Below are positions 38,963 through 63,659 of a DNA stretch of 64,000 bases, one piece after another. The notes below the pieces were generated by a model, which made no database searches, was not told the origin of the DNA, and was given only the letters and a program-made list of their open reading frames with translations. The position numbers were made by a program, and so were the translations under genes. The stretch is from the IMG/VR virus record IMGVR_UViG_2529292828_000009. One strand, 5' to 3'. Positions within the stretch are counted from its first letter, which is position 1. Each line of letters opens with the position of its first letter. Origin of the DNA: a virus. Taxonomy: Duplodnaviria > Heunggongvirae > Uroviricota > Caudoviricetes.

Positions 38963-38963
38963 T

Positions 38964-44344: not shown

Positions 44345-44691
44345 ATCGCAACTATCCTTATGATCTTTAGTAATTAAAGCAATCTACATTGTCGATGATA
44401 CCATCATTGATACCATCAGACCCGATTGATGATAATCGAACAGTAATAAAATATGACTAAACAATTTATGCTTCAACATAAGATTGAATGCTTTGATCTA
44501 CCATTTTAATGCAGTGGAAAAATTTTTAACACAATACTTAAGAAAAATAATTTCATATAAAAACTACATTTCATTTCATATAGTTAACACACCAAAAACA
44601 ACTGTATATAAACCCAGTAAAAAATGGTAGAATCACTATTGTGTTCAATTGTTGAACATTTATAATACATTTGTCGGATAGGGGGGTGTTT

Positions 44692-46223: not shown

Positions 46224-46237
46224 AATTTTAAGTAGAA

Positions 46238-46278
46238 GTGACAAATATTATAAACCATTCTTGAAATATATTTGTCAC
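46238..46278. terminator. Bidirectional hairpin between convergent genes
   Basis: 11-bp perfect inverted repeat GTGACAAATAT (46238-46248) / ATATTTGTCAC (46268-46278). Confidence 0.5.
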
Positions 46279-46287
46279 TATTACTAA

Positions 46288-46959
46288 TCATTCGCGTGCT
46301 TGATTATTTATGCTGGATGTTCTAATTGTTGCCGAATGCCAATACCCACCACTATATGTTCTTGCTATAGTAATAAATCCAGTACAGGTAATTACTGTCA
46401 TTAAAATCAGGAAAATATAATAGAAATTAAGCGGAGCTTTCAAATCAAAAGGAGGTAACGAATACACCAGCAACCCTATCCATACAATAGTTATAAATAA
46501 ACTAATAATTTGGTTTATCTTAGATACTGATATTGGAGATGGACCAGTAAGTAAATGAACCGAAAACTCTTTTATTCCTTTCGGTTTTGCACGAGATAAC
46601 ACCACTTTATATAGTGGACCATTAATATTATCTTCTAACATATCGACATGTTTTTCCCAGTTTCCCTGCCAATATTTACTACCACGGTTAACACAGAGCC
46701 AACCGAATGAAAATACAATTCCCAGTGAACACAGTAATACGGATAAATCTGTCTTAGCTGTAGAAGAGGAAGTCTGTATAGCAACAAAACCAGCTAAAGT
46801 TGCCGCTATAAAAGTCCAGAAATAAGTTGCTCTTTTCCAGTAATGGTCTATCTCATATTTCCGTATATCTAAAGCCTGTAGCAGAGCATTCTTATTACAG
46901 TCTCTATCATTAAGAAAACGGCTACGATATTCCTCATCTGAAAATGGAGTAATTGGCAT
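46288..46959 (-). CDS. Orphan multi-TM membrane protein with a SLATT-like N-terminal arrangement
   Basis: Charged helix, then TM pair (YFWTFIAATLAGFVAI ... LSVLLCSLGIVFSFGWLCV), then two further C-terminal TM helices; no match recognised. Confidence 0.5.
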   Translation of the reverse strand: MPITPFSDEEYRSRFLNDRDCNKNALLQALDIRKYEIDHYWKRATYFWTFIAATLAGFVAIQTSSSTAKTDLSVLLCSLGIVFSFGWLCVNRGSKYWQGNWEKHVDMLEDNINGPLYKVVLSRAKPKGIKEFSVHLLTGPSPISVSKINQIISLFITIVWIGLLVYSLPPFDLKAPLNFYYIFLILMTVITCTGFITIARTYSGGYWHSATIRTSSINNQARE

Positions 46960-46985
46960 ATTGATTTACCTCTATTTATAATAGT

Positions 46986-47013
46986 AAAAGAGGGGTCCCC
47001 CCCCCTCTTTTTT
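46986..47013 (-). terminator. Rho-independent terminator at the 3-prime end of the RM gene
   Basis: AAAAGAGGGG (46986-46995) / CCCCTCTTTT (47002-47011) stem with flanking T-run. Confidence 0.55.
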
Positions 47014-50000
47014 AGTTATTTTTAAACAAAACCTTTACTATTCCATCTATATCCCTTAGGAAACTCTCGAAAGAGGATCTATTAGCCTTAGCTTCATGAG
47101 CCTTTTTTGAAAGTTCAGACAGCTCACGATGCTTTTTATTACCTTCATCATAAAGAGGAACATTAATTGGAGGTCTGATTTTAAAAGTTCTGCTATCACT
47201 GGACTTCAGAATGTACTCCCCAGTGATTGATGAGTTAAAAATAGCACAAATGTAATGTGCCTCATCCAGGGTAATAAATTTACCATCTTGCCTCTGAGAT
47301 ATACTCACAGCATGGTTCTGAAATAAAGGTCTCTTTTTGTCACCCCATGGAGTATCCATTTGACTCACAACTGCTGCTGCCCATTTAGTGTTATCACGAA
47401 AACAAACAAAATGATCACCATAAGTATATTCACCTACACGAGCCAATGCGTAAAATGCAGTAATATTGCTTTTACCTATGATTTTGTCATTGTATCGAGT
47501 CTGCGACTCTAATAACTGTTTATTATTAATGAAATAGTCAGCCAACATAGGGCTTTCTTTAACAAGCTCATCTACAGGTATCGGTTTACGACTCAATTCT
47601 CTATATGGAAAGGGTACGAAGAACTCAACATCTTTTACCCCAAAAGGTTCAATATTTGTTCCTTTAATCAGGGGGTATATATGCTTGGTTTCAGCAAAAA
47701 TCATTTGTTTTGCCACTTTATACTTAGACTTGCCACCCTGATAATTTTCAAAAATTGCAGTGTTGTTAGCTTTTTTTGTCTTAAATTTCCATAAGAATAA
47801 TTCTTGAGGGAAAAATTCAATCCCTTCCCTGCCATGATATTCGCAATATCCACTGATATTTCTGTAATCATTGAGTTTTTCGGAATCTGAAGCATATGTA
47901 AAGGCTGTATTGCTTACACTAACAGTGCCAGCGATCTCTTTACGGATAGAGAACTCATGCGAAATAGCATTAAAATGCGTATGCTGTGAGTAGCTATCAA
48001 GGCTTCTTCCGGTTTTATTTTTCGTCAAAAATGTTAAAGGTATCCCTTTTAAATAATCGACATTTTTTGACGAGAATAAATAAGTCGCAAACTTGATTGT
48101 AACAGGCTTGAATGGATGCCCGGATTCACTCCAGTCGTATACCTCTTGGAGATATAGTTTTTGGTTATCCCCAAAGTTAAACTCTCGAAATCCTTCATAT
48201 GTTTGCTGGAAAAGGATATTTTGAGGCATAAGGAATGCCAATATGCCATCTTTCTCTAACCAGTTTTCAGCAGATACATTAGAAATTAATGCACAAATGT
48301 TAAGGTTTATACCACCAGTAAGCCTATCACCAGAAAATAGGCTCCTACTTAAGCATAAGCCTTTAATTCGTTCTCGATATCCTGCAGGTAAATTTTTCCA
48401 GTCAATCCATGGTGGATTACCAACAACCATATTAAATTTGCCTAAGTTTGCAGTGGTCAAAAAATTAGTGACTATTCTAGCCCAAATTCCATTCCAGTCT
48501 CTTTCTTCTAGTTCGACAAACTTATCTGATAAAGTTTTTAATTTTTCATAAATGCTAGGAGAACTACTAATATCCCCACTTACTTCGATTAATTTTGCAA
48601 AAACACTATCACGATCTCGAAGTTTAATATATCGTTCAATATCAACAATTGCTTTTGAGAACTTATGAGAATCACTCAAAGCTTGAGTAGGCATCTCGAT
48701 ATAAATCGAGCCTTGCAAAGTATTTATTTCGTATCGCAAACAGTCAATGCCATCAATTATGACCTTTTCTGGAACATACGATGCGTCACCAAGATAAATT
48801 GGAATTTCAACTTCGCTACCTTCATCAAGCAAATGTGATATATTGATGAAATAGTTGATTCTTGCAGTTAAAGCTGCAAGAGGATTTAAATCAATACCTT
48901 TGACAGATGTTATGACATCTTTTAATTTAGCTTTGCTATCAGTATGAGTACGACTCAGAACTTTACCTATTAATGTAATTATAAAGGTTCCGCTACCACA
49001 ACATGGATCAATTGCAGTCCAGTTGTTCTTATTTACAACATGCTCTTCAGCAGAGGATATCAAATGCTCTGCAAGCCATTCAGGAGTGTAAAATTCTCCA
49101 AGAGAATGTCTTACTTTATCAGGAATAATGTTCATGTATAGATCTTTGAAAAGATCGTATACTTTTTCACCCTCTTTGAAAAGGTTTCCTTCCTCATATT
49201 CACTTAGTAATGAAAATATATTTTTAATACTAATGAATATATCATCTCCCCATTGTTCCTTAGTACAATACCAAGAGAAAAAGTCACCTTCCAGCAGGTT
49301 CAAAATCCCATACTTCCTGAAAATAGCACCTTCTTCTAATGTGTATAAATAGTTTCTCATTGATTCAGAGTTACTATTGATCATATCTGAAAAATTATAA
49401 TCATTTTCAAATACAAGTCCAGATAATGTTTTATAAGCTATTATTTTTACAATAATCGCATATGCAGTCTGGAGAGCATAAAGAACTTTATATTCATCAT
49501 CGTTAGTAAGTAACCTATGACCAGCAATATCTTCAAGTGATAACTTTCGTTCTAAAATTGCTGTTTGCTGAGATTTATCATCATGTGCAAGTCTAAATAG
49601 CTCCTTCCATTCGTTGAAGAGCATTTGAGAGCGGCCCGTCATGTTATTTTCAAGAGCCGAAAGAAGATTACCTATTAATTGAGTTGTTAAAGATGGAGAT
49701 CCATAGCAAAAATCATCAACGATGTTTTTTGGATGCAATGCCTTCTTATTCAAAAGAACTAAAAGCCCGCAAATTTTTTTAATTGCATTCTTATCAAGCG
49801 GTTGCAACTTTGATGTTAAAATGCCATCAGTATCACGAATAAGGTAATTAATACCGTCTGTTAGCACTCCAACATAGCGTTGATTCCCTTCTAACTTTAA
49901 AGAATCAAGGTAAGCCTGGATTTGAAGCACAGCCTTATTAATATCATTATCTTTTTTTAATTTCTCTCTATGCTTAAACTCTATTACTAAAGATCCAATA

Positions 50001-50290
50001 CGACTATCGATACGCCCCTTACTGTTGCTTCTGCCGGTCGTGTTGTATTTAATACCATCAATAAAAATTTCTTTTTCGGGACGGTAATCAATACCAATGA
50101 AATCTTTAATGAAAGGAATAAAAGCAAGGTCGAAACCAGAAACAACTTCTGCTTCATTTTTGGCTAAATATGAGGACTCATTAATTTTTTTAGATATAAT
50201 ATCAGCAGCTAAAAGAAAATCTGAGTCAGTAACAATCTTTTCTTGAGCTTTGAACTTAATTTTTTTTTGAATTTCTTCTAACACAGCCAT
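47012..50290 (-). CDS. Type IIG restriction-modification enzyme, MmeI-like (PD-ExK nuclease + N6-adenine methyltransferase + target recognition)
   Basis: N-terminal IDSRIGSLVIEFK (D...ExK), SAM motif DPCCGSGTF, catalytic VGNPPW; 1092 aa in one polypeptide. Confidence 0.65.
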   Translation of the reverse strand: MAVLEEIQKKIKFKAQEKIVTDSDFLLAADIISKKINESSYLAKNEAEVVSGFDLAFIPFIKDFIGIDYRPEKEIFIDGIKYNTTGRSNSKGRIDSRIGSLVIEFKHREKLKKDNDINKAVLQIQAYLDSLKLEGNQRYVGVLTDGINYLIRDTDGILTSKLQPLDKNAIKKICGLLVLLNKKALHPKNIVDDFCYGSPSLTTQLIGNLLSALENNMTGRSQMLFNEWKELFRLAHDDKSQQTAILERKLSLEDIAGHRLLTNDDEYKVLYALQTAYAIIVKIIAYKTLSGLVFENDYNFSDMINSNSESMRNYLYTLEEGAIFRKYGILNLLEGDFFSWYCTKEQWGDDIFISIKNIFSLLSEYEEGNLFKEGEKVYDLFKDLYMNIIPDKVRHSLGEFYTPEWLAEHLISSAEEHVVNKNNWTAIDPCCGSGTFIITLIGKVLSRTHTDSKAKLKDVITSVKGIDLNPLAALTARINYFINISHLLDEGSEVEIPIYLGDASYVPEKVIIDGIDCLRYEINTLQGSIYIEMPTQALSDSHKFSKAIVDIERYIKLRDRDSVFAKLIEVSGDISSSPSIYEKLKTLSDKFVELEERDWNGIWARIVTNFLTTANLGKFNMVVGNPPWIDWKNLPAGYRERIKGLCLSRSLFSGDRLTGGINLNICALISNVSAENWLEKDGILAFLMPQNILFQQTYEGFREFNFGDNQKLYLQEVYDWSESGHPFKPVTIKFATYLFSSKNVDYLKGIPLTFLTKNKTGRSLDSYSQHTHFNAISHEFSIRKEIAGTVSVSNTAFTYASDSEKLNDYRNISGYCEYHGREGIEFFPQELFLWKFKTKKANNTAIFENYQGGKSKYKVAKQMIFAETKHIYPLIKGTNIEPFGVKDVEFFVPFPYRELSRKPIPVDELVKESPMLADYFINNKQLLESQTRYNDKIIGKSNITAFYALARVGEYTYGDHFVCFRDNTKWAAAVVSQMDTPWGDKKRPLFQNHAVSISQRQDGKFITLDEAHYICAIFNSSITGEYILKSSDSRTFKIRPPINVPLYDEGNKKHRELSELSKKAHEAKANRSSFESFLRDIDGIVKVLFKNN

Positions 50291-50835
50291 CGTTACATCT
50301 CTATGTTACATAGCAAATTTCTTATAATTTTACCACATTTCAATAAATATTTCATCATGTTTGTTTGGTATTATCCATACACTTGAGAAAAGTTAATTTC
50401 ACAATTAAGCAAGGGCTAACTCTCCGAAGCTCCGCTTCTTATAGTTCCCCTTGATTTTCTTTCTTTCAGTCAGAAAATACAGACATTTCATCATGAAAAT
50501 TGATAATTTATTTTTAGTATTAAAGTATTATCTCACCTTATCGCCGAACCGATTTGAGATTTAGTGCAACTATAAGTATAGTTCCCCTGACAAATAGCTT
50601 TCTTATTTAAGTAACGGTTAAACGATAGGGCCTCACTACTGGTGCCAATCATGCCATACTCTCAAATGCTACCCCTGCAGACAGGGCTCTACTACCGTAA
50701 AGCTGGCATAAAGTATTATAGTTACCTCTCTTAAAAGGAATTTCTAACTCATGTACCAGATCTACATGAGTTCTACATCCCCCTGATGAACTTAGCAGTG
50801 ATAGCTAACCGATACTGAAGTGTACTGCTGAGTGA

Positions 50836-50887
50836 TTTGACAAATAGAAAATATTAAGCTATAACAGTTGTATCCTACAGGATACAA
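50836..50887 (+). promoter_or_regulatory. Sigma70-like promoter (TTGACA-17 bp-TATAAC) followed by a perfect palindromic operator
   Basis: TTGACA 50836-50841, TATAAC 50859-50864, palindrome GTTGTATCCTACAGGATACAAC 50866-50887. Confidence 0.55.
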
Positions 50888-50899
50888 CATGAGAGCATT

Positions 50900-51157
50900 A
50901 TGCCAGAAATAGATAGGCAGGGAGGTTTGGCTTTCTACATGTACTTTTTCGATACGGGAAAACATCATGTTCCTCATGTACATGTAAAATTTGGCGAATA
51001 TGAATTGGTTTTAAGTATAGCGGATGCCCAAGAACTCGCAGGATACTTACCCGATAAATGGAGAAATAAAGCAAGAAAACATGTATTAACAAATAAACAG
51101 AAACTTAAGAAAATGTGGGTTCTCGCCGTGAATGGAAAACAGCCAGGAACTATCTGA
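50900..51157 (+). CDS. DUF4160-family protein
   Basis: MPEIDRQGGLAFYMYFFDTGKHHVPHVHV N-terminal signature. Confidence 0.6.
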   Translation: MPEIDRQGGLAFYMYFFDTGKHHVPHVHVKFGEYELVLSIADAQELAGYLPDKWRNKARKHVLTNKQKLKKMWVLAVNGKQPGTI

Positions 51158-51170
51158 AGAGGAGAGATTT

Positions 51171-51671
51171 ATGAGCAGAATTATAGACTTAGATATTATT
51201 GATGATTTTACTTTGCAGTTAACCTATGAAAGTGGTTTGTCTGGAAAATTTAACTTCTTTAAATATCGTGATTGCGAAGTTTTTAATAATCCTAAAAAAT
51301 TCCAGAAATTTGCTTTGCTACCTACTGGTGATCTCGAATGGTTAGGGGGCGAACGAGTTACTTCCTTAGAACTGTTAGATAAACTTGTTAATATAAGCTC
51401 TACTGAAAAGAGTAATATTTCAGGCACCACCGACATACTCATGATGGCGTTTCAAGATGCTGTTCGTGAAAATAGACCACAGATTATTCAGGCAGCTTTG
51501 CGAGCTATGCTTGATAAGCATGGTGTAGCAAATGTTGCAAATATGACAAATGGAAGTAGAACAAGTATTTATAAGTCCCTAAGCGAAAATACTAATGTAT
51601 CTATGTCTACTGTTATTAACCTTGCTCATAGTGTTATGGAAATTGAGAAAAAAGAAAAAGAAATATATTAA
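51171..51671 (+). CDS. DUF2442-like domain fused to a C-terminal HTH (antidote-like) domain
   Basis: MSRIIDLDIIDDFTLQLTYESG start after an AGGAGAG RBS; C-terminal LRAMLDKHGVANVANMTNGSRTSIYKSL HTH. Confidence 0.5.
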   Translation: MSRIIDLDIIDDFTLQLTYESGLSGKFNFFKYRDCEVFNNPKKFQKFALLPTGDLEWLGGERVTSLELLDKLVNISSTEKSNISGTTDILMMAFQDAVRENRPQIIQAALRAMLDKHGVANVANMTNGSRTSIYKSLSENTNVSMSTVINLAHSVMEIEKKEKEIY

Positions 51672-52013
51672 TCCCCCATTTTAAGAACGAGGATTGTACA
51701 CCCACCTGATTCAATAGCATTCTCTTAATTCGTTTATATGCCCTTGTCCTCATGATAGAATTGAGTACAGAATAGCTTCTCCAAAAAGGAAAATAATGCG
51801 GATAATTATAGCATTTTTAATTTATTCCCTGCGAGTTAAATACCTTTACTATTATAAGATAAAAACCCAAGCATTAGCATAACTTCATTTCATACATCAC
51901 ATCCCCTCACATTTTCTTCATTACATGTTGACATGAAATAAATTTACTTATAATTATATAATATCAATAAGTAATATAGGGCATTTTAACACACACATAT
52001 AAAAGGAGTTTAT

Positions 52014-52418
52014 ATGGAAGATATAAAAAACAAAGAAGACATTTCACCATCTACAGAAGTCAGGCTCTTCACCCCCACCATGAAAAAAACTTCTAAAGTG
52101 CATCCCAACGAGCGGAGATTACACTGTGTCAGTGTCCGATTAAATAAAAAAGAGTTAGAGAAGATTGAAGAACTCAGGGGTCGTTACCGTAGGGGAGAAT
52201 GGCTGCGTATGGTGTCGTTAAGCAAACTTCCTCCATTGATCCCAGAGATAAACAAGGATGTCTGGATCATGTTGGGGGAAATATCGCAGAAACTTAATCG
52301 TCTGATAGTACATCTGGATTCTAAAACCAGTGACAGCCCTCTGACTAAGACAGAAGCTTATGCAGTCAAAAAACAACTTCATGAGCTTCGTTTAAGCCTG
52401 ATAACTTCTCGTCCATAA
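52014..52418 (+). CDS. MobC-like relaxosome accessory protein
   Basis: 134 aa basic protein immediately upstream of the relaxase; RRLHCVSVRLNKKELEKIEELR. Confidence 0.5.
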   Translation: MEDIKNKEDISPSTEVRLFTPTMKKTSKVHPNERRLHCVSVRLNKKELEKIEELRGRYRRGEWLRMVSLSKLPPLIPEINKDVWIMLGEISQKLNRLIVHLDSKTSDSPLTKTEAYAVKKQLHELRLSLITSRP

Positions 52419-52430
52419 AAATTTCTAATT

Positions 52431-53621
<1,191 letters not shown>

Positions 53622-53845
53622 ACAGCTAGTTGTAAACACCTTTCGTAACCTAACTCAATTGCTTAGTAATAAATTTGTGTTTAGTCAAGAAAATATTGAT
53701 CGTTATTACAGATCGATAATCTAGTTATGATAGACAATAACTATCAAGTAACAATCATCGATCGGTACAAGCAATTTTACTAAAGCGAGTCGGTCATCGA
53801 GAATCTCTGTAAACGCACCATTTAATCTGCAACCCTGGGGTTGAT

Positions 53846-54118
53846 ATGAAAGACGAAACAATAAAGTGCCCGTTCTGCTTTACACAAAGTCCTCATGGTG
53901 TGCGGATTTGCAAAGGGTGTCATGCAAAGGTTGCTTACGGTGAAAGCCCGCTCAGTGTGGCATTCCTGTTTCAATTCGTGGCATTTGGTCTCGCGTGGTT
54001 AGCATTTTCGTGGACCGACAGCACTCTTGTATCAGTCATTACGTTTTTCGTAAGCATCATTATTCTTATCTATAAAATCAAAAGAATGTATGCAGACAGA
54101 GTTGTTTTTATACGGTGA
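53846..54118 (+). CDS. Small membrane protein: N-terminal zinc ribbon + two TM helices
   Basis: CPFC...CKGC followed by two hydrophobic helices. Confidence 0.45.
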   Translation: MKDETIKCPFCFTQSPHGVRICKGCHAKVAYGESPLSVAFLFQFVAFGLAWLAFSWTDSTLVSVITFFVSIIILIYKIKRMYADRVVFIR

Positions 54119-54159
54119 AATTAATTTCACACAATCGCAAACATAAAATGAGAAAGTAA

Positions 54160-54546
54160 ATGAACCGATTTATAACGTCCTCTTTTTTTATTATTGTCTT
54201 CCTGCTTTCTGGCTGTTCAACATCAGGGAACCAGAACCTTAAAAACGAAACACCACAAAGCCTCCAGTCAAAGATCATTAAAAACAAAACAACTAAGACG
54301 GAATTACTCTCTAAGTTAGGTGAGCCTGATACAAGAACCACACTCGATGACGGAAATGAGCAGTGGAAATATTTCATGACTAACAATCAGTTCAGTGCAA
54401 CGACTTTCATTCCAGTTGTGGGGCTGTTTACTGGCGGTTCCCAAACTCAGTCTAAAACTCTTGAAATCGACTTCAAGGGAGAGACTGTAAGTAAATGGAC
54501 TTTTTCCTCTGACAATAACAACACCAAAACTGGAATTCTTAATTAA
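54160..54546 (+). CDS. Predicted lipoprotein
   Basis: Signal peptide with lipobox LLSGC. Confidence 0.5.
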   Translation: MNRFITSSFFIIVFLLSGCSTSGNQNLKNETPQSLQSKIIKNKTTKTELLSKLGEPDTRTTLDDGNEQWKYFMTNNQFSATTFIPVVGLFTGGSQTQSKTLEIDFKGETVSKWTFSSDNNNTKTGILN

Positions 54547-54553
54547 TTGTTTT

Positions 54554-54880
54554 TTGGATAAGAAAATGAAAATATACTCAATTATCACAGTTATCATTAC
54601 CACCTTCCTTCTAACCGCATGTAACAATGAACCATCGCAAGACGATATATACAATGTTTTCAAAAGTGTTGTAGATAGAACAAATACAAGTATGAAAGCT
54701 CTTGATTCAAGAGTTACAGAAAAAGATCTTTTAAGAATCGATTACGTGAAGAAAGTTAGTTGCACAGAAGAAGCAAACAATGTTTATAACTGCATTGTCG
54801 ATGCCTCTATTAGTAATATGAAACAAACAAAACCAGTAAAACTAATCAAATCTGATGGTGTCTGGAAAGAAGTTCAGTAG
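54554..54880 (+). CDS. Predicted lipoprotein
   Basis: Signal peptide with lipobox LLTAC. Confidence 0.5.
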   Translation: MDKKMKIYSIITVIITTFLLTACNNEPSQDDIYNVFKSVVDRTNTSMKALDSRVTEKDLLRIDYVKKVSCTEEANNVYNCIVDASISNMKQTKPVKLIKSDGVWKEVQ

Positions 54881-54930
54881 TAGCCTATATCAAGAAGTCT
54901 TTTAGCCCCTGCACAGGGGCTTTTTATTGC

Positions 54931-55365
54931 CTATAACCTGACGGTTCTTACGCGAACGTCATAGGTTAACTCTTTCTCAATTACTTTCATTTCATATTGT
55001 GCTTTGACAGTAGCAGAGATTTCTTCTGCTTTTTCTTGATTATTATCGATGTAATTAACAAGCGAGTTTAGCTCCCTGATAACAGCATCCTTATTGTTTA
55101 ATCTTTGTAGTAGATTGCTTGTAAGACTTTTGTATACCGAGCTAAACATAGTCATTATGTTATCAATATTACGATTGGATTTGGAATAAATCCTTTCAGG
55201 GTAGAAATACTTCAAATGGTATCCCACAAAAATTAAGTAAAGCTGGTATGAGAAACTTTTATCACCTGGCTGGTATCGTTTTGAGATATATTTATCGACG
55301 ATAATGATAAGTTGCTCTTCCAGAGTAAACTCTGGATAGATAATGTTTTTGTCCATAAAATGCAT
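54931..55365 (-). CDS. Hypothetical protein
   Basis: 144 aa ORF, AT-rich codon usage, no motif recognised. Confidence 0.35.
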   Translation of the reverse strand: MHFMDKNIIYPEFTLEEQLIIIVDKYISKRYQPGDKSFSYQLYLIFVGYHLKYFYPERIYSKSNRNIDNIMTMFSSVYKSLTSNLLQRLNNKDAVIRELNSLVNYIDNNQEKAEEISATVKAQYEMKVIEKELTYDVRVRTVRL

Positions 55366-55452
55366 CCTTGCATTAGTTAAATAGTCTTCCTGACCATATA
55401 TTTATATTTATCGCATTTATTAAACTTGTCAATAGGTGTAACCTATCAAATA

Positions 55453-55839
55453 TTATTTTTTATTAAATGGCCTATTCAACTGTTCCATAGTAAGACCGTG
55501 TCTATAAGCATTATACTGCCAATAGCTAAATTGCTCTTTGTATCTATTGTTCTGTTTTTTCAACATTTCGTTTTCGGCTTTAAGGTTTATTATTTGTTGT
55601 GCCGCAATAGTTAAGTTAGCTGGTTTCTTTAGACCAGATTTTTTCAAATTGGACAAACTTTTCTTTATTCTATATGCTTCAACAACTTCATCATGAGCAC
55701 TTAAAGATTGCCTTGTGATAGTTCTGTTTAGATTCTTATACACTGATTCACATAAATCACTCCATGTGATTTTACCGTCCCAAGTCAGTATAATGTGTTT
55801 AATTGCTTTTATTTCACTCCTGTTCAAATGTTTTGCCAT
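55453..55839 (-). CDS. Small basic protein downstream of the recombinase array (TnpC-like by size and position)
   Basis: 128 aa, 14 bp after the 624-aa recombinase gene. Confidence 0.4.
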   Translation of the reverse strand: MAKHLNRSEIKAIKHIILTWDGKITWSDLCESVYKNLNRTITRQSLSAHDEVVEAYRIKKSLSNLKKSGLKKPANLTIAAQQIINLKAENEMLKKQNNRYKEQFSYWQYNAYRHGLTMEQLNRPFNKK

Positions 55840-55853
55840 AAGTATCTCCTGTT

Positions 55854-57728
55854 TTAATTATTCAAAAGCTTATTAATTCTTTCCAAATTTTTTTCATGGT
55901 GTTGCAACCATTTGTCTGCACCATAATCACCATTTTCATAAGCGATCTGAGTTATTCTCTTTAATTGCATTACTTTCTCTCGGACAGATTGCAGTCTAAT
56001 TCTATCTACTGAGTTAATGTCCGGTGTTTCATTATCACATTCAATAAGATGATTAATTTTTGCACAAGGCTTGATTAAATAGTTATGTACACAGTAACCA
56101 AATTCAGTTAAGTGTATTGCACCTTGATTAAGGTTATCAAAATCAATTGTCAGTTCATTTGTGGGTATTGACTCCCTTTGACAGTAATTACTCCTATTCA
56201 ATTTAATAGCTTTGATTTTATCTAACATATCTTCTTCCGACACATGGTTATAAACTCTGTTCTGATTCGCATTGATACGACCAGACCATTTAGCTATATC
56301 CAGTTCAGACATTTCACCATAATGGGCTATTGTGTTTAAAAGGTGCCGTGGCTGGTGTGAGCGAATAAGTAGTGGTTTACCTTCATCATCATAATATCCA
56401 TATCGGGAAAATATATTTTTATAATTCATCTCATAGCTTTTTTTTCTTTGTATGTCACTGAAAAAGAAACTTTTAGTAGGCTTATAAAATGTGAAAATTG
56501 AAGTCATTCTTGATAAAGAAAATTGATCAGTATTGAGCAAGCATAAAGCATTACTAAATTTTATGGATTTTTCTTTATCATACCATGGAAAGTCTCTGCT
56601 AAAATTAGAACTAATAATTTCCCACAAATCACTCAATGAATAGTTGTAATCATTGTGGTTTAAGAAGCTTTTCCCACCATCCAAACTCGTTCTTTTAATT
56701 TTTAAAACACATGATTTATGATCAAATAAATGATATCCCAGTGCATGGCAAACTTGTACAACGGTCAATTTAGCTTTTTCATCAACTGTTGGGCAAAGCT
56801 CATGTCGGTAAAATTTATCCGGGTACTTTTCGCACCAGTGAGCAAGTGCTCTTGCATTTTGTGATAAGGAAAGTAATCTTCTAATCGCTTTCTTTGCAAC
56901 TGGTATCATAACCCGTGGAATCCATTTGATATTAGGGCCATACCCTTTTACCGAATAAAATCTCAAACCATATCTTTCGATACCCTTGCCATCTATTTGT
57001 GTAATCTCACAATCAGCAGGTAAGGCTAAAATTTCAGAAATTCTGCTCGGACAACAAAGTAGAAGTGCAAATACTGAACTGGTGAACTTATCCCTTGGAC
57101 TCAGTAACTCATCATTTTGAGAAAAAATATCAGCAATAGCGAGCAATGCTTCTTCATCTGGTAACTTATCGCTTCGGTGATAATCCTCAATCTCAGGAAG
57201 ATAATTGTTTTTGACTTTCTGTTTTACATGGTTTTTCCATGAGATATATCCTGACTTCACAAGATTATGTTCACACAGAAACTTTGATATTTTTTCAAGC
57301 TGTATTCCACATTTAGCCAAAACGTTACCTTCAAAATATTTACTCCCGATCTGCATTGCCTCATCGAAAACAACGGCTGTAACATTATAAATGAGACCAG
57401 TGTTCTGAACCTGCAAAAGGGCCTGTTCGAGACATCGCAAGGCCATCATAATAACCCCATAATTTTTCAATGGTTTCAATGTGTGTTGATATCTGATATA
57501 TGCTTTCGCAAAATTGATATAATCTTCGTGCATTGCATCAATGGAATCAAAGATTTTATTTCCAATCCCTATTTTTCTAAATGTGACATATCCTTTCCAG
57601 GCATACTGCTCCCAATCCTGAGTTTGGGTTAGTCCGGACAGTTGATAGCGACAAAATTTTATGAACTCATTATAATTTTCTTCTACAAGAATATGTTTTT
57701 TTGATTTGAACAAAATAATATTATTCAT
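55854..57728 (-). CDS. Tyrosine recombinase-like protein, third of three (624 aa)
   Basis: C-terminal SHQPRHLLNT ... NQNRVYNHV pattern; ATGA overlap with upstream gene. Confidence 0.5.
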   Translation of the reverse strand: MNNIILFKSKKHILVEENYNEFIKFCRYQLSGLTQTQDWEQYAWKGYVTFRKIGIGNKIFDSIDAMHEDYINFAKAYIRYQHTLKPLKNYGVIMMALRCLEQALLQVQNTGLIYNVTAVVFDEAMQIGSKYFEGNVLAKCGIQLEKISKFLCEHNLVKSGYISWKNHVKQKVKNNYLPEIEDYHRSDKLPDEEALLAIADIFSQNDELLSPRDKFTSSVFALLLCCPSRISEILALPADCEITQIDGKGIERYGLRFYSVKGYGPNIKWIPRVMIPVAKKAIRRLLSLSQNARALAHWCEKYPDKFYRHELCPTVDEKAKLTVVQVCHALGYHLFDHKSCVLKIKRTSLDGGKSFLNHNDYNYSLSDLWEIISSNFSRDFPWYDKEKSIKFSNALCLLNTDQFSLSRMTSIFTFYKPTKSFFFSDIQRKKSYEMNYKNIFSRYGYYDDEGKPLLIRSHQPRHLLNTIAHYGEMSELDIAKWSGRINANQNRVYNHVSEEDMLDKIKAIKLNRSNYCQRESIPTNELTIDFDNLNQGAIHLTEFGYCVHNYLIKPCAKINHLIECDNETPDINSVDRIRLQSVREKVMQLKRITQIAYENGDYGADKWLQHHEKNLERINKLLNN

Positions 57729-59029
57729 AGTTGATTCACCTCACTGCGATCAATCGGAATAAAAAACATACATTGATTGCAAGGAAATCCTGAATTCTGA
57801 CTCTGGCATCTACTTGAAGAAAAAAATTTGAAATGACTACTCTTTTTCGATTTGATTCCGTTCATAAAAATATCAGCGACAAATGACAATTGTTCTGAAA
57901 CAGCGGAATCAATCCTTTCAACACTGTCAGCATGATTTTTAATATAAATCCCCGCACTTGAAGTAGATGAATGATCCAATAATTCAGCTATAGTATTAAC
58001 ATTATGCCCATTCTTAGCCAGCATAGTTGCTATTGTATAACGAAGCCTACGAGGAGTAATATTTAGTATCGAACCGGTACGGTTGGATATTACATTCCCA
58101 TTATTAACAATACTTTTCAATGCTACATTAGCAATTGTAGGCTTCGCATATAATTTATTATATTCCAGAAGAATTGAACCTGTTATGGATAAATCTGAGA
58201 GTTTTTCCTCATTTAAGAAAATAGGAACTTCTCGTTTAGAATAATCATCAAGAGTTTTTCCAAGAGCTTGTTCAACAAGTTTCACTGATTGATTAGCTTG
58301 CAATTGAACAATTGATGCAACCTCTGATATTATTGCAAGTTCTCGATATCGTAGTTCTTTACCCCGTTGTTTTACTCGTGGCACTGAAATTACATATTCT
58401 ACTTTGCCATTATCTAAGTTCTTTTGAAGAAGGTCTTTATATTTCAACATAACTAACTGCTGAGGTCTTCTACCTGTAAGACTGATCAATAGTGATATTG
58501 CATAATGTGGCAGTGACAGTTCACCTTTTCTATATGCATGATTCATAGCCTTAATCAAAGAAGTATGTTCTTCTTTATTTAATGGTCCCTCTGTTGGATC
58601 ATCTTGAAGCACAGACTGACCAGATTTTTTTATTTTTAGGTCCAAATGCTTTAACAGTTCTACCGCACTTTCATCTATTCCCGGATATCCTAACTCAAAC
58701 CATTTAATCAAAAATGGTCGTAAAACGCGAAATGATGCTGGGGCTTTTGATAATTTCTTATTTTGATATTCAATTAGAACCTTATCATCAATATGAGTAG
58801 GAGATAGTTTACGGATAAGACTCTCCATATTTCTAACAATATTTTTCACATACAAATAGCTGTTGCTATTAAAATAATATTGTACTGTATATACAAACCC
58901 ACAAACCAAATTTTCGTTCATAGCATATATTAAGTTTGTAAGATTGATTCCGTTATTTTCAATCGAACTGACGACTTTATGTTCATGCAAAGACATTTTA
59001 TCAGATTTATTTTTAATTAAATTATTCAT
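57725..59029 (-). CDS. Tyrosine recombinase, second of three
   Basis: LTGRRPQQL ... RRLRYTIATMLAKNGHNVNTIAELLDHSSTSSAGIYIKN; start MNNLIKNK overlapping upstream stop by 8 nt. Confidence 0.6.
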   Translation of the reverse strand: MNNLIKNKSDKMSLHEHKVVSSIENNGINLTNLIYAMNENLVCGFVYTVQYYFNSNSYLYVKNIVRNMESLIRKLSPTHIDDKVLIEYQNKKLSKAPASFRVLRPFLIKWFELGYPGIDESAVELLKHLDLKIKKSGQSVLQDDPTEGPLNKEEHTSLIKAMNHAYRKGELSLPHYAISLLISLTGRRPQQLVMLKYKDLLQKNLDNGKVEYVISVPRVKQRGKELRYRELAIISEVASIVQLQANQSVKLVEQALGKTLDDYSKREVPIFLNEEKLSDLSITGSILLEYNKLYAKPTIANVALKSIVNNGNVISNRTGSILNITPRRLRYTIATMLAKNGHNVNTIAELLDHSSTSSAGIYIKNHADSVERIDSAVSEQLSFVADIFMNGIKSKKSSHFKFFSSSRCQSQNSGFPCNQCMFFIPIDRSEVNQL

Positions 59030-60224
59030 CAAATTCTCCTTTGAATAGTTGCTCTTGTTGTTCAAGTGCAGTTTTTTTCGATAGCTCATAAATATGCCTG
59101 CGATTATAAATCATTGAAGTTTCTGAACCCGGTCGCCATCCCATGAGATAAGAACGGATTTGTTGCTCTTTTTCATCGGATATGTCCTGATTCTTGTCTA
59201 TTGCTTTCGAAAACTCATAATTCCATGTATGTCTGAGTTTGTGACCTGTCAATCCCCCTAGAAGTGAGGAGGATTGACGAACAACACTCACCACTTTGTG
59301 ATATGAAGAAAATGAAATAGGTTGCCCTTGAGTTTTTCCTTCCTTATAAGTAATAAACAGGAAATCATGTTTGTTAGAATTTTTTATGTTTCTTCGATCA
59401 TTCAGAATATAATCTGAAATTTCAAACATGAGCTTTTTATCAGCAATTAATTTCCTCTCACAAGTTTTAACTAAAGGCTGATACACTCGCGGATCTGTTT
59501 TATCATTTGCTCTTCTTCTTATTGCAATTGTCGATTCTGCAAAATCTATATCACCAATTCGCAGATTCAAAAGTTCACCTGCTCTCAGGCCAAAGCAGTG
59601 TAATAGCAGGAATATTAGATTGTTTCTTTTTTGCACTTTTTCTGAAAAAGGATTTAATTTGCTACCCGGTGCAAGAATGCTAAACAAAGAATCCAATTGT
59701 TCATTATTTAAACTTTTTTCTATATCCATATTATATTTATCATTATTTCTCGGTTTCTTTCGTTTTATGTTGTTAATGAAATCTAAAATATATTTGAGAG
59801 TATCCTTCTGTCCTGTATGAGAAAGATGTATTTTGCACAGCCATTCCAGATAGTTAGCTATGGTTGTTATCCGAAAGTACTTAGTTGGTTTTTTGACATT
59901 TGAACTTCTAAAATTATCATTCTCGCCATCTCGAAAATTGAATGAAGTGAATTCGATCAAATCTTCAATTTCATGAGGAGCCAGAAATATCCTTTTCTGA
60001 ATTCTTTCATCAATATTGATCTCTTTCCTCATAAAGAATCGATATAACAATGAAATGCTACCGGCAATAACCTTCATTGTTGATATAGACTCTGACCGAT
60101 TCCTGACCTGTGTTGTTATATACAAGTTAGGATAATACAATGGTTCACCAGTATTTTTATTTACGATATGACAATATCTCTCACCATTTTCGAACATAAA
60201 AGAATCCACACAAATACTACGCAT
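59022..60224 (-). CDS. Tyrosine recombinase, first of three
   Basis: GLRAGELLNLRIGDID ... GHKLRHTWNYEFS ... MIY catalytic-domain pattern. Confidence 0.6.
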   Translation of the reverse strand: MRSICVDSFMFENGERYCHIVNKNTGEPLYYPNLYITTQVRNRSESISTMKVIAGSISLLYRFFMRKEINIDERIQKRIFLAPHEIEDLIEFTSFNFRDGENDNFRSSNVKKPTKYFRITTIANYLEWLCKIHLSHTGQKDTLKYILDFINNIKRKKPRNNDKYNMDIEKSLNNEQLDSLFSILAPGSKLNPFSEKVQKRNNLIFLLLHCFGLRAGELLNLRIGDIDFAESTIAIRRRANDKTDPRVYQPLVKTCERKLIADKKLMFEISDYILNDRRNIKNSNKHDFLFITYKEGKTQGQPISFSSYHKVVSVVRQSSSLLGGLTGHKLRHTWNYEFSKAIDKNQDISDEKEQQIRSYLMGWRPGSETSMIYNRRHIYELSKKTALEQQEQLFKGEFDE

Positions 60225-60519
60225 ATTTTCCTCCTAAACTTTACAAAAAGTATAATTCCAATATATTAATAATAAGCATTTCGTAGATTTACAAATTTAT
60301 TTGAATTGATTAAGCCATTTAGTTAAATTAAAACAGTGAGATAGATGTTTATTCCTGTCAAATTATCATCTGGTAGATCTAGTTATTATTATGTACACCT
60401 AATACCTCGAAAACTATCTCACTGCCTTGCTAATAAACGATCATAAAAATAATGTAAGTTATTCTGTAAAGTTTTAAGCAAAAATATACAGCCAAACTTT
60501 ACATTTTCATAAATATTTA

Positions 60520-60819
60520 TTAATCCAACAGATATAGAATTATCCGCTTCGCCAAGAGTTTCATTTCATCAGGGCATTTAATTAGCGAGAACCAGGTCTC
60601 GTAAACATATATCTGTTTGGAAGCATTAAGCTCAGAGATCGAGTCTAAAGGTTCTCTCAAATTTCCTACAAGGTACTGACTGAGCCAGTAAATTATTTCT
60701 TTATTAAACTCGTTATTGGGTAAGTCATAAATCACTTCTTGGTCAAAGATCTTGTAAAACCGATCTCCGCATAAATTGCACATATGGTTATCCTCACTCA
60801 CAAATTCTTCGATATTCAT
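60520..60819 (-). CDS. Hypothetical protein
   Basis: 99 aa ORF downstream of the AlpA-like gene. Confidence 0.35.
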   Translation of the reverse strand: MNIEEFVSEDNHMCNLCGDRFYKIFDQEVIYDLPNNEFNKEIIYWLSQYLVGNLREPLDSISELNASKQIYVYETWFSLIKCPDEMKLLAKRIILYLLD

Positions 60820-60840
60820 AAAAATCTCTCCCAGGTTTAA

Positions 60841-61047
60841 TTAAGCAACATTAATTCTGCTTGATTCGATAACTGATTGAATCCACTCGTCAACTTCACT
60901 CTCGACAAAAGCAACGGCACGAACACCGATCTTAACGGGGGCCGGAAACCGACCTTCACTGATCAGACGATAAATCCAGGCCTTGCCGAAACCAGTTCGT
61001 TTCAAGACTTCTGGTAAACGAATTAAGCTTTGATTAGTTGTACTCAT
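60841..61047 (-). CDS. AlpA-family regulator / excisionase-like
   Basis: LIRLPEVLKRTGFGKAWIYRLISEGRFPAPVKIG HTH. Confidence 0.7.
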   Translation of the reverse strand: MSTTNQSLIRLPEVLKRTGFGKAWIYRLISEGRFPAPVKIGVRAVAFVESEVDEWIQSVIESSRINVA

Positions 61048-61213
61048 TTGGCTGTCTCCTCCGCTTCCGTTACGAAGATATTAGCCACACAGATTCGTAT
61101 CTATGAAGGGAATGCTGATAACTGAAAAGTTAGATGAGGGAAGAATGAAAGGAAATTCCGGGGAAGAAAAATATTTACGCCCTCCCCTTGACAATTAACA
61201 TGATGATTTACAA

Positions 61214-62044
61214 CTAGAAAGATCCGAGTTCCGAAATCGGTATGTTGCGGAGATGGCTGTTTTTGCTGATAAAATATTCCAGACTACGGGTTGTTTCGCC
61301 ATTCAATGACTTCTCTGCAACAGGCCTGTCTGTATCTTTAATGTGATCTTCTCCTCTGATCTCATTTGTAAAGTCGGGATACAAGACACGAGACAAGACC
61401 ATATTTGAGATTTTTACTTTTTTAAACTTTGCCCAAATCAATAAATCCATCATTGGGATAATATTGTAATCGACAAGTTTTCTTATTTTTGCAAGTCCAA
61501 TTTTTTCTGTTTTCACTGGCTCAATTTCATATTCTTTTCTAAGATCTGGTAGCATCGTTTGTAAGGCTGTTATAATTTCTTCATCGCTGGACATTCCTAA
61601 ATCAAATGAAACATACATCTTGCTGCTATTTTGGTTAAGAAAAAAGTCCCTCATAGTTTTTGTAATTGGCTTCTTTTTCAACTCTTTTTTGAAATCGCCA
61701 TTTTCTTCAAAAAAATCCATGCTAAACATTATTAACTTGTTCTCTAATTTTTTTATATCACCAAAGCTAACCTGCGCAACATGTCTTTGGCCCTTGCCAA
61801 AATGACCATGATTATTATCTTGTATGCTTAAAATAGGATTACCTTCAAGGATAGACCTTAAATTTTGATTATCATCTTCCCAACCAAAATTTACACTGTC
61901 GAAAATCGCTTCTCTAAAGGCAAGCTCTGTATGCAGTTCTTTGATTGTAAGTGATTTTAACTGCTCATAGTTTTCGAGACTAAACCAGCTTTTTAATTCT
62001 TCATAAGGGCTTACTACTTTCATTAATCCCTCCACTGTATTCAA
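61214..62044 (-). CDS. Hypothetical protein adjacent to the integrase
   Basis: 276 aa ORF, no motif recognised. Confidence 0.4.
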   Translation of the reverse strand: MNTVEGLMKVVSPYEELKSWFSLENYEQLKSLTIKELHTELAFREAIFDSVNFGWEDDNQNLRSILEGNPILSIQDNNHGHFGKGQRHVAQVSFGDIKKLENKLIMFSMDFFEENGDFKKELKKKPITKTMRDFFLNQNSSKMYVSFDLGMSSDEEIITALQTMLPDLRKEYEIEPVKTEKIGLAKIRKLVDYNIIPMMDLLIWAKFKKVKISNMVLSRVLYPDFTNEIRGEDHIKDTDRPVAEKSLNGETTRSLEYFISKNSHLRNIPISELGSF

Positions 62045-62134
62045 AGCTTGAATGAGTTAACACTGCTTATTTGAATTAATTCTCCCTTAACAAGGTTGAT
62101 AAGGGAGAACGATTAATTAACTACTTATTCATAG

Positions 62135-63385
62135 TTAAGTCTTTTTAAAATCAAATGGTGAAACTTGTCGTATTCTAAGGAGGTCAAGGTAATCGGCCCA
62201 CCACTGCAACATAAGCTTTCTCTCATCAAGGTGCTGTGCTTTATGTATGTAGGCAGCACGAACTGAGTTCCGCTCCTGATGGCTCATTTGCCGTTCAACA
62301 GCATCTTTCGACCACAAGCCGGATTCAATCAAGGCACTACAAGCCATAGCCCTGAATCCATGTCCACAGACCTCCACGGTTGTGTCATAGCCCATAGCTC
62401 GCAAAGCTTTATTAACTGTGTTCTCGCTCATAGGTTTGCGGAAATTATGATCGCCAATAAATACGAGTTCATGGTCACCACTGATCTCTTTGATTTTCGT
62501 CAGCACAGCCAATGCCTGACAACTCAAAGGAACAAGATGTGGAGTTCGCATTTTCGAACCACGGTGCGAATGTTTGACCCCTGGCAATGGTTCGCGTTCT
62601 CCAGGGATAGTCCACATCGCATTTTCAAAGTCGATCTCCGACCATCTTGCGAATCTGAGTTCACTGGAACGAATGAAAATGAGCAATGTAAGCTTTACGG
62701 CTAACTTAGTGAGTTTTCTACCCTTGAAGCTATCTATTCGTTCTAAAAGTTCTGAGAATCGTTCGAATGGCAAAGCTGGCCTGTGGACTCTTTTAGCTAC
62801 CGCAATAGCTCCTGCCATCTCTTGAGCAGGGTTGTAATCTATCAGCCCGTTCTGGACAGCATATCGCATCACTGCCGTTGTTCTTTGCTGTAGGCGGGAA
62901 GCAACTTCCAGTCGCCCAGAAGCTTCAACAGCCTTGATAGGGGCAAGAAGATCTCTGGTATTAAGCTCGGATATTTTTCTTTTACCAATAGCAGTAAAGA
63001 GACCATCTTCCATGCTTTTTAGAACTCTCTCGCTATGGGAATCTGACCATTTCCTTTTACAAGCCTTATGCCAGTCCCTGGCAACAGATTCAAAAGTAAG
63101 AGCTTCGCTCTGCTCGATCTTGTCTGCCTTTTTCTTCTCGGAAGGGTCGATACCATCAGATACCAACTTTTTAGCCTCATCTCGTTTCCTGCGAGCTTCA
63201 CCAAGAGAGACCATTGGATAAACACCCAATGCTAAAACTTTCTGTTTGCCATCGAAACGGTATTGGAGTCGCCAGTATTTTGAACCATTGGGGTTGATCA
63301 GCAGGTGCATACCCTGCCCATCTGTGAGTTTGAAAGGTTTGTCGGAGGGCTTGGTAGTCCTAACTTTGATATCGGTGAGAGCCAT
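62135..63385 (-). CDS. P4-family tyrosine integrase adjacent to leuX
   Basis: 416 aa; homologous to the integrase at 42898-44169; lies directly 3-prime of tRNA-Leu. Confidence 0.9.
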   Translation of the reverse strand: MALTDIKVRTTKPSDKPFKLTDGQGMHLLINPNGSKYWRLQYRFDGKQKVLALGVYPMVSLGEARRKRDEAKKLVSDGIDPSEKKKADKIEQSEALTFESVARDWHKACKRKWSDSHSERVLKSMEDGLFTAIGKRKISELNTRDLLAPIKAVEASGRLEVASRLQQRTTAVMRYAVQNGLIDYNPAQEMAGAIAVAKRVHRPALPFERFSELLERIDSFKGRKLTKLAVKLTLLIFIRSSELRFARWSEIDFENAMWTIPGEREPLPGVKHSHRGSKMRTPHLVPLSCQALAVLTKIKEISGDHELVFIGDHNFRKPMSENTVNKALRAMGYDTTVEVCGHGFRAMACSALIESGLWSKDAVERQMSHQERNSVRAAYIHKAQHLDERKLMLQWWADYLDLLRIRQVSPFDFKKT

Positions 63386-63574
63386 CAGTTGATACCTCCA
63401 GTGTTGGTACCAAAATCAATCGAACCGGGAATACCATCAGTTATACCATCATCGGTTGGTATATGTTCAAGGAACTGAGTAGACGTGAACAGACTAAGCC
63501 AAGTTAGAAACCTGCTTAACTTACTGTTTTTATGGACTAAAGTAGACGTTAGTAGACTTAAAAAAAGCTTTGTA

Positions 63575-63659
63575 TGGTGCCGAAGGCCGGACTCGAACCG
63601 GCACGTATTTCTACGGTTGATTTTGAATCAACTGCGTCTACCGATTTCGCCACTTCGGC
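63575..63659 (-). tRNA. leuX: tRNA-Leu (leuX-type)
   Basis: Reverse complement reads GCCGAAGTGGCGAAATCGGTAGACGCAGTTGATTCAAAATCAACCGTAGAAATACGTGCCGGTTCGAGTCCGGCCTTCGGCACCA. Confidence 0.9.

Follow-up and report, generated by a model that had tools for sequence, protein, structure and literature searches.

A ginABCD operon of the GInt family as a probable fixed component of a mobilizable defense island in leuX

Introduction

GInts, functionally defined in 2017 by Bardaji et al. (PMC5385486), are among the least understood integrative elements, both in their need for three recombinase-like proteins and in their spread without transfer genes. In Pseudomonas GInts, all four products of the gin operon are needed for circular excision and site-specific integration, and variable cargo extends from the ginD stop codon into a short AT-rich 3' end (PMC5385486). 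GInts are reported from 7.5% of Escherichia replicons (PMC10214605) and have been described as defense carriers in Escherichia coli by Hochhauser et al. (PMC10121019). We analyzed a ginABCD operon at positions 55453-60224 of the IMG/VR record IMGVR_UViG_2529292828_000009 (64,000 nucleotides, hereafter the window), where it lies within an island inserted in leuX. The operon is probably a fixed part of this larger mobilizable defense island and not a separate jumping element; we propose that it serves the island as a second site-specific recombination system. The family itself is known; the island context of this gin lineage is apparently undescribed.

Results and discussion

Four coupled genes are assigned to the ginABCD operon

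The list of open reading frames (ORFs) of the window places four co-oriented minus-strand genes of 400, 434, 624, and 128 amino acids at 55453-60224:

59022..60224, minus strand: ginA, a 400-amino-acid tyrosine recombinase with R214, H328-x-x-R331-H332, and Y373
57725..59029, minus strand: ginB, a 434-amino-acid tyrosine recombinase with box II R327-x-x-R330-Y331; H353 and Y362 present
55854..57728, minus strand: ginC, a 624-amino-acid large protein with a predicted tyrosine-recombinase fold; R229, K261, H458-x-x-R461-H462, W481-S-G-R484, and Y493
55453..55839, minus strand: ginD, a 128-amino-acid basic (isoelectric point 9.96), all-helical accessory protein

The longest ORF of the second gene (57725-59089) would encode 454 amino acids; the ATG at 59029, giving 434 amino acids, was chosen because it follows an AAAGGAG ribosome-binding site and agrees with the PGAP (NCBI) annotation of orthologous records. 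With this start, ginA and ginB overlap by 8 nt; ginB and ginC overlap by 4 nt (ATGA), and ginC and ginD are separated by 14 nt containing AGGAG. The sequence AGGAGG lies 5' of ginA, so that a ribosome-binding site stands ahead of each of the four genes. The gin region is AT-rich (GC content 0.29-0.37), as is the rest of the island. An earlier note on this DNA had read the genes as a translationally coupled operon of three tyrosine-recombinase-like genes and a small basic fourth, and the ORFs, the overlaps, and the domain and fold assignments confirmed it.

A scan for promoters and terminators gave 30 matches compared to 27.8 expected from shuffles, which is chance level. The best sigma-70-like match in the region (59893-59920, plus strand, TTGACA-16-TATCAT, 11/12) lies inside ginA and points outward from its 5' part; its orientation is reminiscent of an outward promoter described for a Pseudomonas GInt, but the number of promoter-like matches in the region is at chance level.

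Homology was tested by BLASTP to GinA-GinD of the S. Dublin plasmid pSD_88, of Psychrobacter, and of a Pseudomonas aeruginosa plasmid, and to the Pseudomonas stutzeri DSM4166 fragments taken from the supplement of the GInt paper (PMC5385486). GinA, GinB, GinC, and GinD aligned one to one over their full length with the proteins of pSD_88 (43, 31, 40, and 46% identity) and Psychrobacter (44, 32, 38, and 44%), both of which are ssb-type GInts; the identities to this type are therefore 43-44% for GinA, 31-32% for GinB, 38-40% for GinC, and 44-46% for GinD. Identities to the P. aeruginosa plasmid set were 27, 22, 24, and 29%. When plasmids were searched with GinC by tblastn, canonical GInts were found: on pSD_88, ssb is followed by ginA (415 amino acids), ginB (512), ginC (677), and ginD (139), and then by Avs4 and AbiGi, and the Psychrobacter chromosome has the same gin arrangement downstream of ssb. 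Gene order and sizes agree with those of GInts. On homology and gene order, the four genes are the ginABCD operon of the GInt family.

Orthologs of the last two genes are already listed as ginC-ginD blocks in the supplement of Idola 2023 (PMC10214605), both for strain IAI1 (WP_001059590.1/WP_001062149.1) and for strain H10407 (WP_001059592.1/WP_001062150.1), and the tables of that study score IAI1 as SE 0 and GInt 1. The family is therefore known and the module already catalogued, and the idea that the array is of a type uncharacterized in E. coli has to be given up.

The ssb-targeting GInts, known from Enterobacterales and other Gammaproteobacteria (for example pSD_88 and Psychrobacter), form the sister clade, with 38-46% identity for GinA, GinC, and GinD, and both types carry defense cargo (Avs4 and AbiGi on pSD_88). 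Unlike the operon in the window, they have the 3' end of ssb as their insertion point, carry their cargo directly after ginD, lack an AlpA/DUF6387/relaxase backbone, and encode a longer GinB (512-527 amino acids), GinC (677), and GinD (139).

Relation to Tn554, RIT, and SE elements

The array had been likened to the recombinase-in-trio (RIT) elements and to the Tn554 module, and it is most improbable that the operon belongs to either. Like GInts, Tn554 is a site-specific element driven by tyrosine recombinases, in which a 630-amino-acid recombinase is followed by an accessory protein of about 125 amino acids; the 624 and 128 amino acids of GinC and GinD resemble these sizes, and a low similarity between GinD and TnpC was reported by the GInt authors (PMC5385486). 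A Tn554 copy (tnpA 361, tnpB 630, and tnpC 125 amino acids), fetched through erm(A) on the Staphylococcus aureus plasmid pWBG14, was compared directly. TnpA is related to GinA (32% identity over 136 amino acids, E 2.5e-11), this being the only significant BLASTP match. TnpB against GinC gave E values of 0.024 and 0.83, confined to box I and box II, with HQPRH paired with HAFRH and RVYNH with RYAH; TnpC against GinD gave E 7.3. The hhalign probabilities for the TnpB-GinC and TnpC-GinD pairs were 1% and 5.7%, and GinD had no match to DUF6262, the family annotated for TnpC. Tn554 has two recombinases as against three here, its TnpB and TnpC resemble GinC and GinD only in generic box motifs or coiled coil, and its hosts are Firmicutes (Staphylococcus). 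RIT elements consist of three recombinases of 315-410 amino acids, all with the catalytic tyrosine; terminal inverted repeats flank them, and a fourth gene is absent (PMC10214605). Here the sizes are 400, 434, and 624 amino acids, a fourth gene of 128 amino acids is present, and there are no conserved terminal inverted repeats. The nearest family is the GInts.

SE elements (intA-tfp-intB-srap; PMC10214605) likewise combine two recombinases, one large recombinase-fold protein, and one small protein and are found in Gammaproteobacteria. They differ in having a large non-catalytic Tfp in second position and imperfect terminal inverted repeats of 13-19 bp, and published networks separate SE from GInt proteins (PMC10214605). 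Assignment to this group was rejected: the large protein is third here and has catalytic residues, conserved terminal inverted repeats are absent, and the SE score of IAI1 is 0. A further candidate, in which a Gin protein would be a recombinase-like relaxase of the MOB_M type (10.64898/2026.01.13.699239), was set aside, as the island already has a MobA/VirD2 relaxase.

GinC has a predicted recombinase fold with catalytic residues

The profile searches that the earlier note had proposed succeeded for the first two genes, GinA (2.6e-13) and GinB (1.2e-10) both matching Pfam Phage_integrase, and yielded no Pfam or NCBIfam match for either GinC or GinD. A sequence-profile search of the PDB with the GinC family also gave zero matches, and fold comparison alone worked. 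The AlphaFold (AF2) model of GinC has a predicted local distance difference test score (pLDDT) of 69.6, which is moderate, with well-defined N-terminal and central parts and a poorly defined segment around Y493. When the model was compared with the PDB using Foldseek, all significant matches were tyrosine recombinases (XerH, Cre, Tn1549 Int, XerA, IntI, and lambda Int), and the top matches XerH, Cre, and Tn1549 Int had E 2e-5 and probability 1.0.

The GinC family alignment comprised 22 sequences with 23-100% identity, including a copy from a Pseudomonas plasmid. R229 (in PSRxSE, box I), K261, R461-H462, W481-S-G-R484, and Y493 are invariant across all 22, and H458 is conserved in at least 90% of the alignment. 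In a direct comparison with residues 481-540 of P. stutzeri GinC (37% identity, E 1e-8), the HxxRH and VYNH motifs were covered. The 624-amino-acid protein, which the earlier note had read as a recombinase, thus has in this alignment the R-H-R-Y residues whose lack the note had named as a refutation. As judged from alignment and model, the large third protein, GinC, has a tyrosine-recombinase fold and retains here the full set of catalytic residues. In the literature, GinC is stated to be without the first arginine (PMC5385486) and without the RHRY motif (PMC10214605). A C-terminal cluster of cysteines and histidines follows the catalytic domain (C546, H548, C555, H560, and C564, the first three being conserved); this C-x-H-x6-C... 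cluster may bind zinc.

GinA and GinB are conventional tyrosine recombinases. GinA aligned with the P. stutzeri DSM4166 GinA fragment (26% identity over 227 amino acids, E 2e-17) and had a weak NCBIfam match to "gamma-mobile-trio recombinase GmtY" (36 bits, cutoff 340). GinB scored 315 bits against NCBIfam NF041502 ("site-specific integrase"), below the cutoff of 350, and the P. stutzeri GinB fragment had no significant match among the window proteins. Mapping of the catalytic residues by alignment with XerA placed an arginine in GinB box II (PRRLRY) where histidine is usual, with H353 and Y362 retained. GinB is 74% identical in Rosenbergiella, compared to 86-97% for the other three Gin proteins. 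The C-terminal helix of GinD is long, and its family alignment shows WQYNA as a conserved motif; its single-sequence AF2 model is helical and of low confidence (pLDDT 61).

The operon is under purifying selection

Wherever the fetched sequence covers the whole operon, which is so for 13 related loci (L001-L003, L007-L012, and L016-L019), the four ORFs are intact, as they are in the clades with 52% and 42% identity. In strain MSHS 472 (L004) ginB is annotated as two pieces, and in Erwinia OLFS4 the operon is divided between two contigs. The ratio of nonsynonymous to synonymous substitution rates (dN/dS) was 0.04-0.3 for ginA, ginC, and ginD in all but one pair, the exception being ginA against its counterpart in L010, a nearly identical pair with a synonymous divergence (dS) of only 0.004. 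For ginB the ratio was 0.2-0.7, making it the most relaxed of the four genes. The intact ORFs in relatives, together with purifying selection, therefore identify the four gin ORFs as real genes and not chance ORFs.

These data also bear on the proposal that the operon is an inactive relic, a decaying old GInt insertion carried passively by the island. The fast evolution of ginB (dN/dS up to 0.72), the arginine in place of the box II histidine, and the lack of detectable ends are what such decay might leave. On the other side stand the ORFs kept intact in the related loci and in the two more distant clades, the preserved translational coupling, the strong purifying selection on ginA, ginC, and ginD, and the invariance of the GinC catalytic residues over the whole identity range of the alignment, and we give the proposal very little credence.

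The operon occupies a fixed position in a conserved island backbone

The operon lies in the leuX island, as had been proposed, the evidence being the tRNA-Leu(CAA) gene and the flanking 25-nt repeats. The features of the island outside the operon and its cargo are as follows:

44320..63598, no strand assigned: host island 1, a 19.25-kb mobilizable island in leuX with exact 25-nt direct repeats at 44320-44344 and 63574-63598
63575-63659: leuX, tRNA-Leu(CAA)
62135..63385, minus strand: P4-type integrase (Pfam Arm-DNA-bind_3, Phage_int_M, and Phage_integrase), adjoining leuX
61214-62044, minus strand: DUF6387 protein (Pfam 4.7e-78)
60841-61047, minus strand: AlpA-family regulator or excisionase (Pfam Phage_AlpA 5.7e-20)
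60520-60819, minus strand: hyp99, a 99-amino-acid protein, upstream of ginA and co-oriented with it
54931-55365, minus strand: hyp144, a 144-amino-acid protein encoded by a backbone gene downstream of ginD
between hyp144 and the relaxase gene, plus strand: three small backbone ORFs (90, 128, and 108 amino acids)
52431-53621, plus strand: MobA/VirD2 relaxase (Pfam Relaxase 4.7e-23)
52014-52418, plus strand: ORF of 134 amino acids upstream of the relaxase gene, without a Pfam family; "MobC-like" from position only

An exact copy of the 25 nt at the 3' terminus of leuX (63574-63598) lies at 44320-44344 and a degenerate one at 32683-32707, and two islands are therefore placed in tandem at leuX. 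Equivalent leuX repeats bound the islands of strains IAI1 and AREA_C483. Read from leuX, island 1 consists of the integrase, DUF6387, AlpA, hyp99, ginABCD, and hyp144 genes in one orientation, then the convergent small ORFs, the relaxase, and the 134-amino-acid ORF, and then cargo; the integrase is likewise next to leuX in L001, L003, L006, L007, and L010.

The gin region is present in 99 of 5,426 complete E. coli genomes, and in all 30 E. coli records listed it occupies the same slot of the same island backbone. All copies examined share the conserved block from relaxase to AlpA, be they at leuX (AREA_C483, IAI1) or beside ssrA/ypjA (H10407). A scan of GTDB species representatives gave 13 loci, 12 of which, including Pantoea and Erwinia with 38-46% protein identity, share the order DUF6387-AlpA-hyp99-ginABCD-hyp144...relaxase; the remaining locus (L013) is a 1.5-kb fragment with only part of ginC. 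DUF6387-AlpA-hyp99 is syntenic in every gin-bearing locus and in gin-less relatives, and the block from hyp144 to the relaxase is kept in all relatives with or without gin. GinC clades at 52, 45, and 42% identity share the same island backbone, and the clade at 38% is the classical ssb-type GInt. In a neighbor-joining GinC tree (no support values), the island-embedded proteins form one clade, sister to the ssb type. In every copy examined the module lies in one and the same backbone slot, which is compatible with site specificity or with simple inheritance.

Compared with GInts as described (PMC5385486), the locus has the same four-gene order and tight coupling, a large and poorly annotated GinC in third position, a small helical GinD, and defense or adaptive cargo; each product of its four coupled, co-oriented genes is homologous to the Gin counterpart. 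It differs in the layout of the element. ginA is not terminal: the operon does not lie at the 5' end of the island, and the P4 integrase, DUF6387, AlpA, and hyp99 genes stand between ginA and leuX, as they do in all relatives. The ends of the island derive from a tRNA gene, a relaxase is encoded within it, and the DNA after ginD (hyp144 through relaxase) is conserved backbone in place of variable DNA, with variable cargo only beyond the relaxase gene. At the module boundaries, no imperfect 10-17-nt direct repeats (attL/attR) of the kind that flank GInts were found above chance, and GinC retains the box I arginine.

This layout was weighed against a scheme in which a large GInt with relaxase cargo, extending from about 60383 to about 44345, was inserted beside a small islet of P4 integrase, DUF6387, and AlpA. 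The scheme would reproduce the canonical plan of gin at the 5' end followed by cargo, often for defense (PMC5385486, PMC10121019), and the variable cargo is indeed distal to ginD. We nevertheless judge it very unlikely: gin-less relatives share the supposed cargo backbone, with hyp144, the small ORFs, and the relaxase arranged alike, the distal end is the 25-nt leuX repeat, that is, an integrase att site, DUF6387-AlpA-hyp99 co-diverges with gin down to Pantoea, and in H10407 the integrase is at the far end of the same body.

In H10407 (L002, 7480-26872), the same island body is found at ssrA with a different integrase (33% identical) and in opposite orientation relative to it. As the integrase stands at the other end of the body there, the integrase-att module has, on the circular map, been swapped and inverted at the same position. 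No ssrA-derived direct repeat bounding the far end of the H10407 island was found.

By gene content only, the closest described type for the host island is the EARL/ROD21-like group (PMC6035254), which it resembles in the P4-like integrase, the AlpA-like excision factor with a gene of about 0.84 kb, the MobA relaxase, the tRNA direct repeats, and the absence of a type IV secretion system. Those islands integrate in Asn-tRNA genes, as against leuX or ssrA here, and three extra recombinases are not described for them.

Module boundaries and the question of a nested insertion

Two features delimit the gin-specific DNA:

60225..60383, minus strand: gin leader, the 159 nt ahead of ginA, restricted to gin-bearing elements and meeting at its outer edge the backbone DNA that gin-less relatives share
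55436..55452, minus strand: gin tail after the ginD stop; its end, placed by alignment and by comparison of intergenic regions, adjoins the conserved promoter-like TTGACA box of hyp144

The gin-specific segment (about 55436-60383, about 4.95 kb) therefore contains the operon alone. The earlier note had inferred a second, nested mobile element. In its GInt version, the main rival to the fixed-component reading, this cargo-less segment would target one intergenic site of the island and hitchhike with it, in parallel with the ssb-targeting sister lineage. Its boundaries with gin-less relatives are sharp. The spacing from the ssb stop to the ginA start in ssb-type GInts (158 nt in L020, 156 nt in L028) is about that of the 159-nt leader, and the right boundary falls close to the ginD stop, where the variable DNA of canonical GInts begins (PMC5385486). 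Distantly related GInts are known to have one target in common (PMC5385486), a divergent gin operon lies in the same slot of MSHS 472, a synthetic minimal GInt works in Pseudomonas (PMC5385486), and SE elements have been proposed to hitchhike in integrative and conjugative and in integrative and mobilizable elements (PMC10214605).

The searches for independent mobility did not bear this out. A synthetic empty-site query made of the joined flanks had no match across both flanks in the 5,426 E. coli genomes; in gin-less relatives, whose backbones have diverged, the slot is taken by other DNA. Local alignments of the boundaries, evaluated against shuffles, revealed no direct or inverted repeats above chance, and pairing of the ends within the same element and across elements in five divergent element types revealed no covarying terminal repeats. 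The flanking inverted repeats that the earlier note had suggested looking for are thus neither above chance nor conserved. The gin lineage was never seen outside the island backbone, every copy examined being in the fixed context, an outcome that the earlier note had named as refuting a nested element, and the island-embedded clade appears monophyletic. As no empty site and no terminal repeats were detected, a nested transposon is not supported, and we regard a nested GInt as unlikely. A multi-recombinase control circuit, the alternative named in the earlier note, is neither favored nor contradicted by these data.

The only inverted repeat that spans the two ends is imperfect and 22 nt long (55458-55479/60306-60327, 82% complementary); one of its arms covers the ginD stop, and the second lies 82-103 nt upstream of ginA. 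Present in the window but not in its relatives, and reached by 9 of 300 shuffles, this repeat is probably due to chance. In both gin-bearing and gin-less islands, hyp144 is preceded by a conserved leader, CTATTGACA...TATAAAT...GGTCAGGA(A/T)GAC...TGCAAGGATGCAT, which lies at 55370-55440 in the window and has counterparts in L004, L023, L026, and L031; it is likely a promoter or operator abutting the end of the gin-specific DNA.

Several observations weigh against the reading of the operon as a fixed island component. Alignment with the gin-less loci L005 and L006 set the leader edge as a sharp boundary 159 nt upstream of ginA. These gin-less backbone relatives (XJW9B277 at leuX and Z217-2 at ssrA/ypjA) have 1.6-2.6 kb of unrelated DNA between hyp99 and hyp144, and their hyp99 and AlpA are 76-84% identical to those of the window, closer than in some gin-bearing islands; gain, loss, or exchange of the module must therefore have taken place here at least once. 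In MSHS 472 the gin operon has 45% identity and the relaxase-side flanks 82-93%, and synonymous divergence along the operon is a mosaic, varying about 100-fold within single pairs. Homologous recombination among islands can explain both the MSHS 472 mixture and the mosaic divergence; repeated site-specific insertion could too. The clade of island-embedded proteins comes from a neighbor-joining tree without support values. Finally, our GinC alignment conflicts with both published statements of missing catalytic residues, and the invariant catalytic set calls for a second look at the published non-catalytic view.

The sharp shifts in synonymous divergence along the operon indicate recombination breakpoints inside it. 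In the gin-less slot (L006 11783-13387, L005 13788-16318), a 188-amino-acid winged-helix protein is encoded on the opposite strand, with weak matches to RepL, Phage_rep_O, and HTH_36 (E about 1e-3 to 8e-3); different modules for maintenance or recombination may thus be accommodated there.

Proposed role of the operon in the island

We observed family identity, fixed context, and purifying selection directly; the remainder of the fixed-component reading is a proposed mechanism. The gin lineage would have been captured once and would thereafter have been an integral, selected, and vertically co-inherited component of an island family made up of a P4-type integrase, DUF6387, AlpA, gin, and a MobA relaxase with variable anti-phage cargo, which integrates in leuX or beside ssrA. 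Insertion of the island into the chromosome is the work of the P4-type integrase and not of gin, because the repeats are tRNA-derived and the integrase adjoins the tRNA gene. Since insertion in leuX is the signature of that integrase, gin is most likely a second, tRNA-independent site-specific recombination system. By homology with GInts, its chemistry would be strand exchange by a multi-subunit tyrosine recombinase at specific sites, via a circular intermediate, with GinD as a putative architectural or specificity factor. More speculatively, gin might serve to insert the island into another target, for instance a helper conjugative element, or to process the circle after excision.

A stronger form of this proposal is that a whole gin clade was domesticated by a widespread family of tRNA/tmRNA-integrating mobilizable defense islands, with GinC as a third active recombinase, yielding dual-integrase elements with two target specificities. 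We hold this form to be rather improbable. If it were true, gin could dock the excised island on a helper conjugative element or at an alternative chromosomal site, or drive the exchange of neighboring modules.

Combining this gin lineage with an island that has its own integrase and relaxase offers a natural system in which gin-dependent and integrase-dependent recombination can be separated. It also hints at how GInt-type modules may spread to new hosts, namely by living inside mobilizable elements. Such islands are common anti-phage carriers in Enterobacterales, with Kiwa and a type IIG restriction-modification system here and Hxs, Abi, CBASS-like, and TIR systems in relatives.

Cargo of island 1 and the neighboring island

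The cargo of island 1 and the distal island comprise the following features:

47012-50290: type IIG restriction-methyltransferase, 1092 amino acids (2e-156)
46288-46959: 8xMP membrane protein, island 1 cargo
44671-46223: Kiwa KwaA/KwaB (PADLOC 9e-77 and 2e-115)
32683-44344: island 2 (distal), with a P4-type integrase at 42898-44169, a P4 alpha-like primase-helicase at 33056-35440, and a SIR2-HerA defense pair at 39843-42859

The cargo of relatives differs at the same position and includes Hxs, Abi, PLD/AAA, CBASS-like, and TIR/caspase genes. Island 2 is probably a P4-like satellite. Within the relaxase gene, a perfect tandem run of the hexamer CCTGCT (53262-53332) encodes a (Pro-Ala)n linker, the length of which likely varies from copy to copy.

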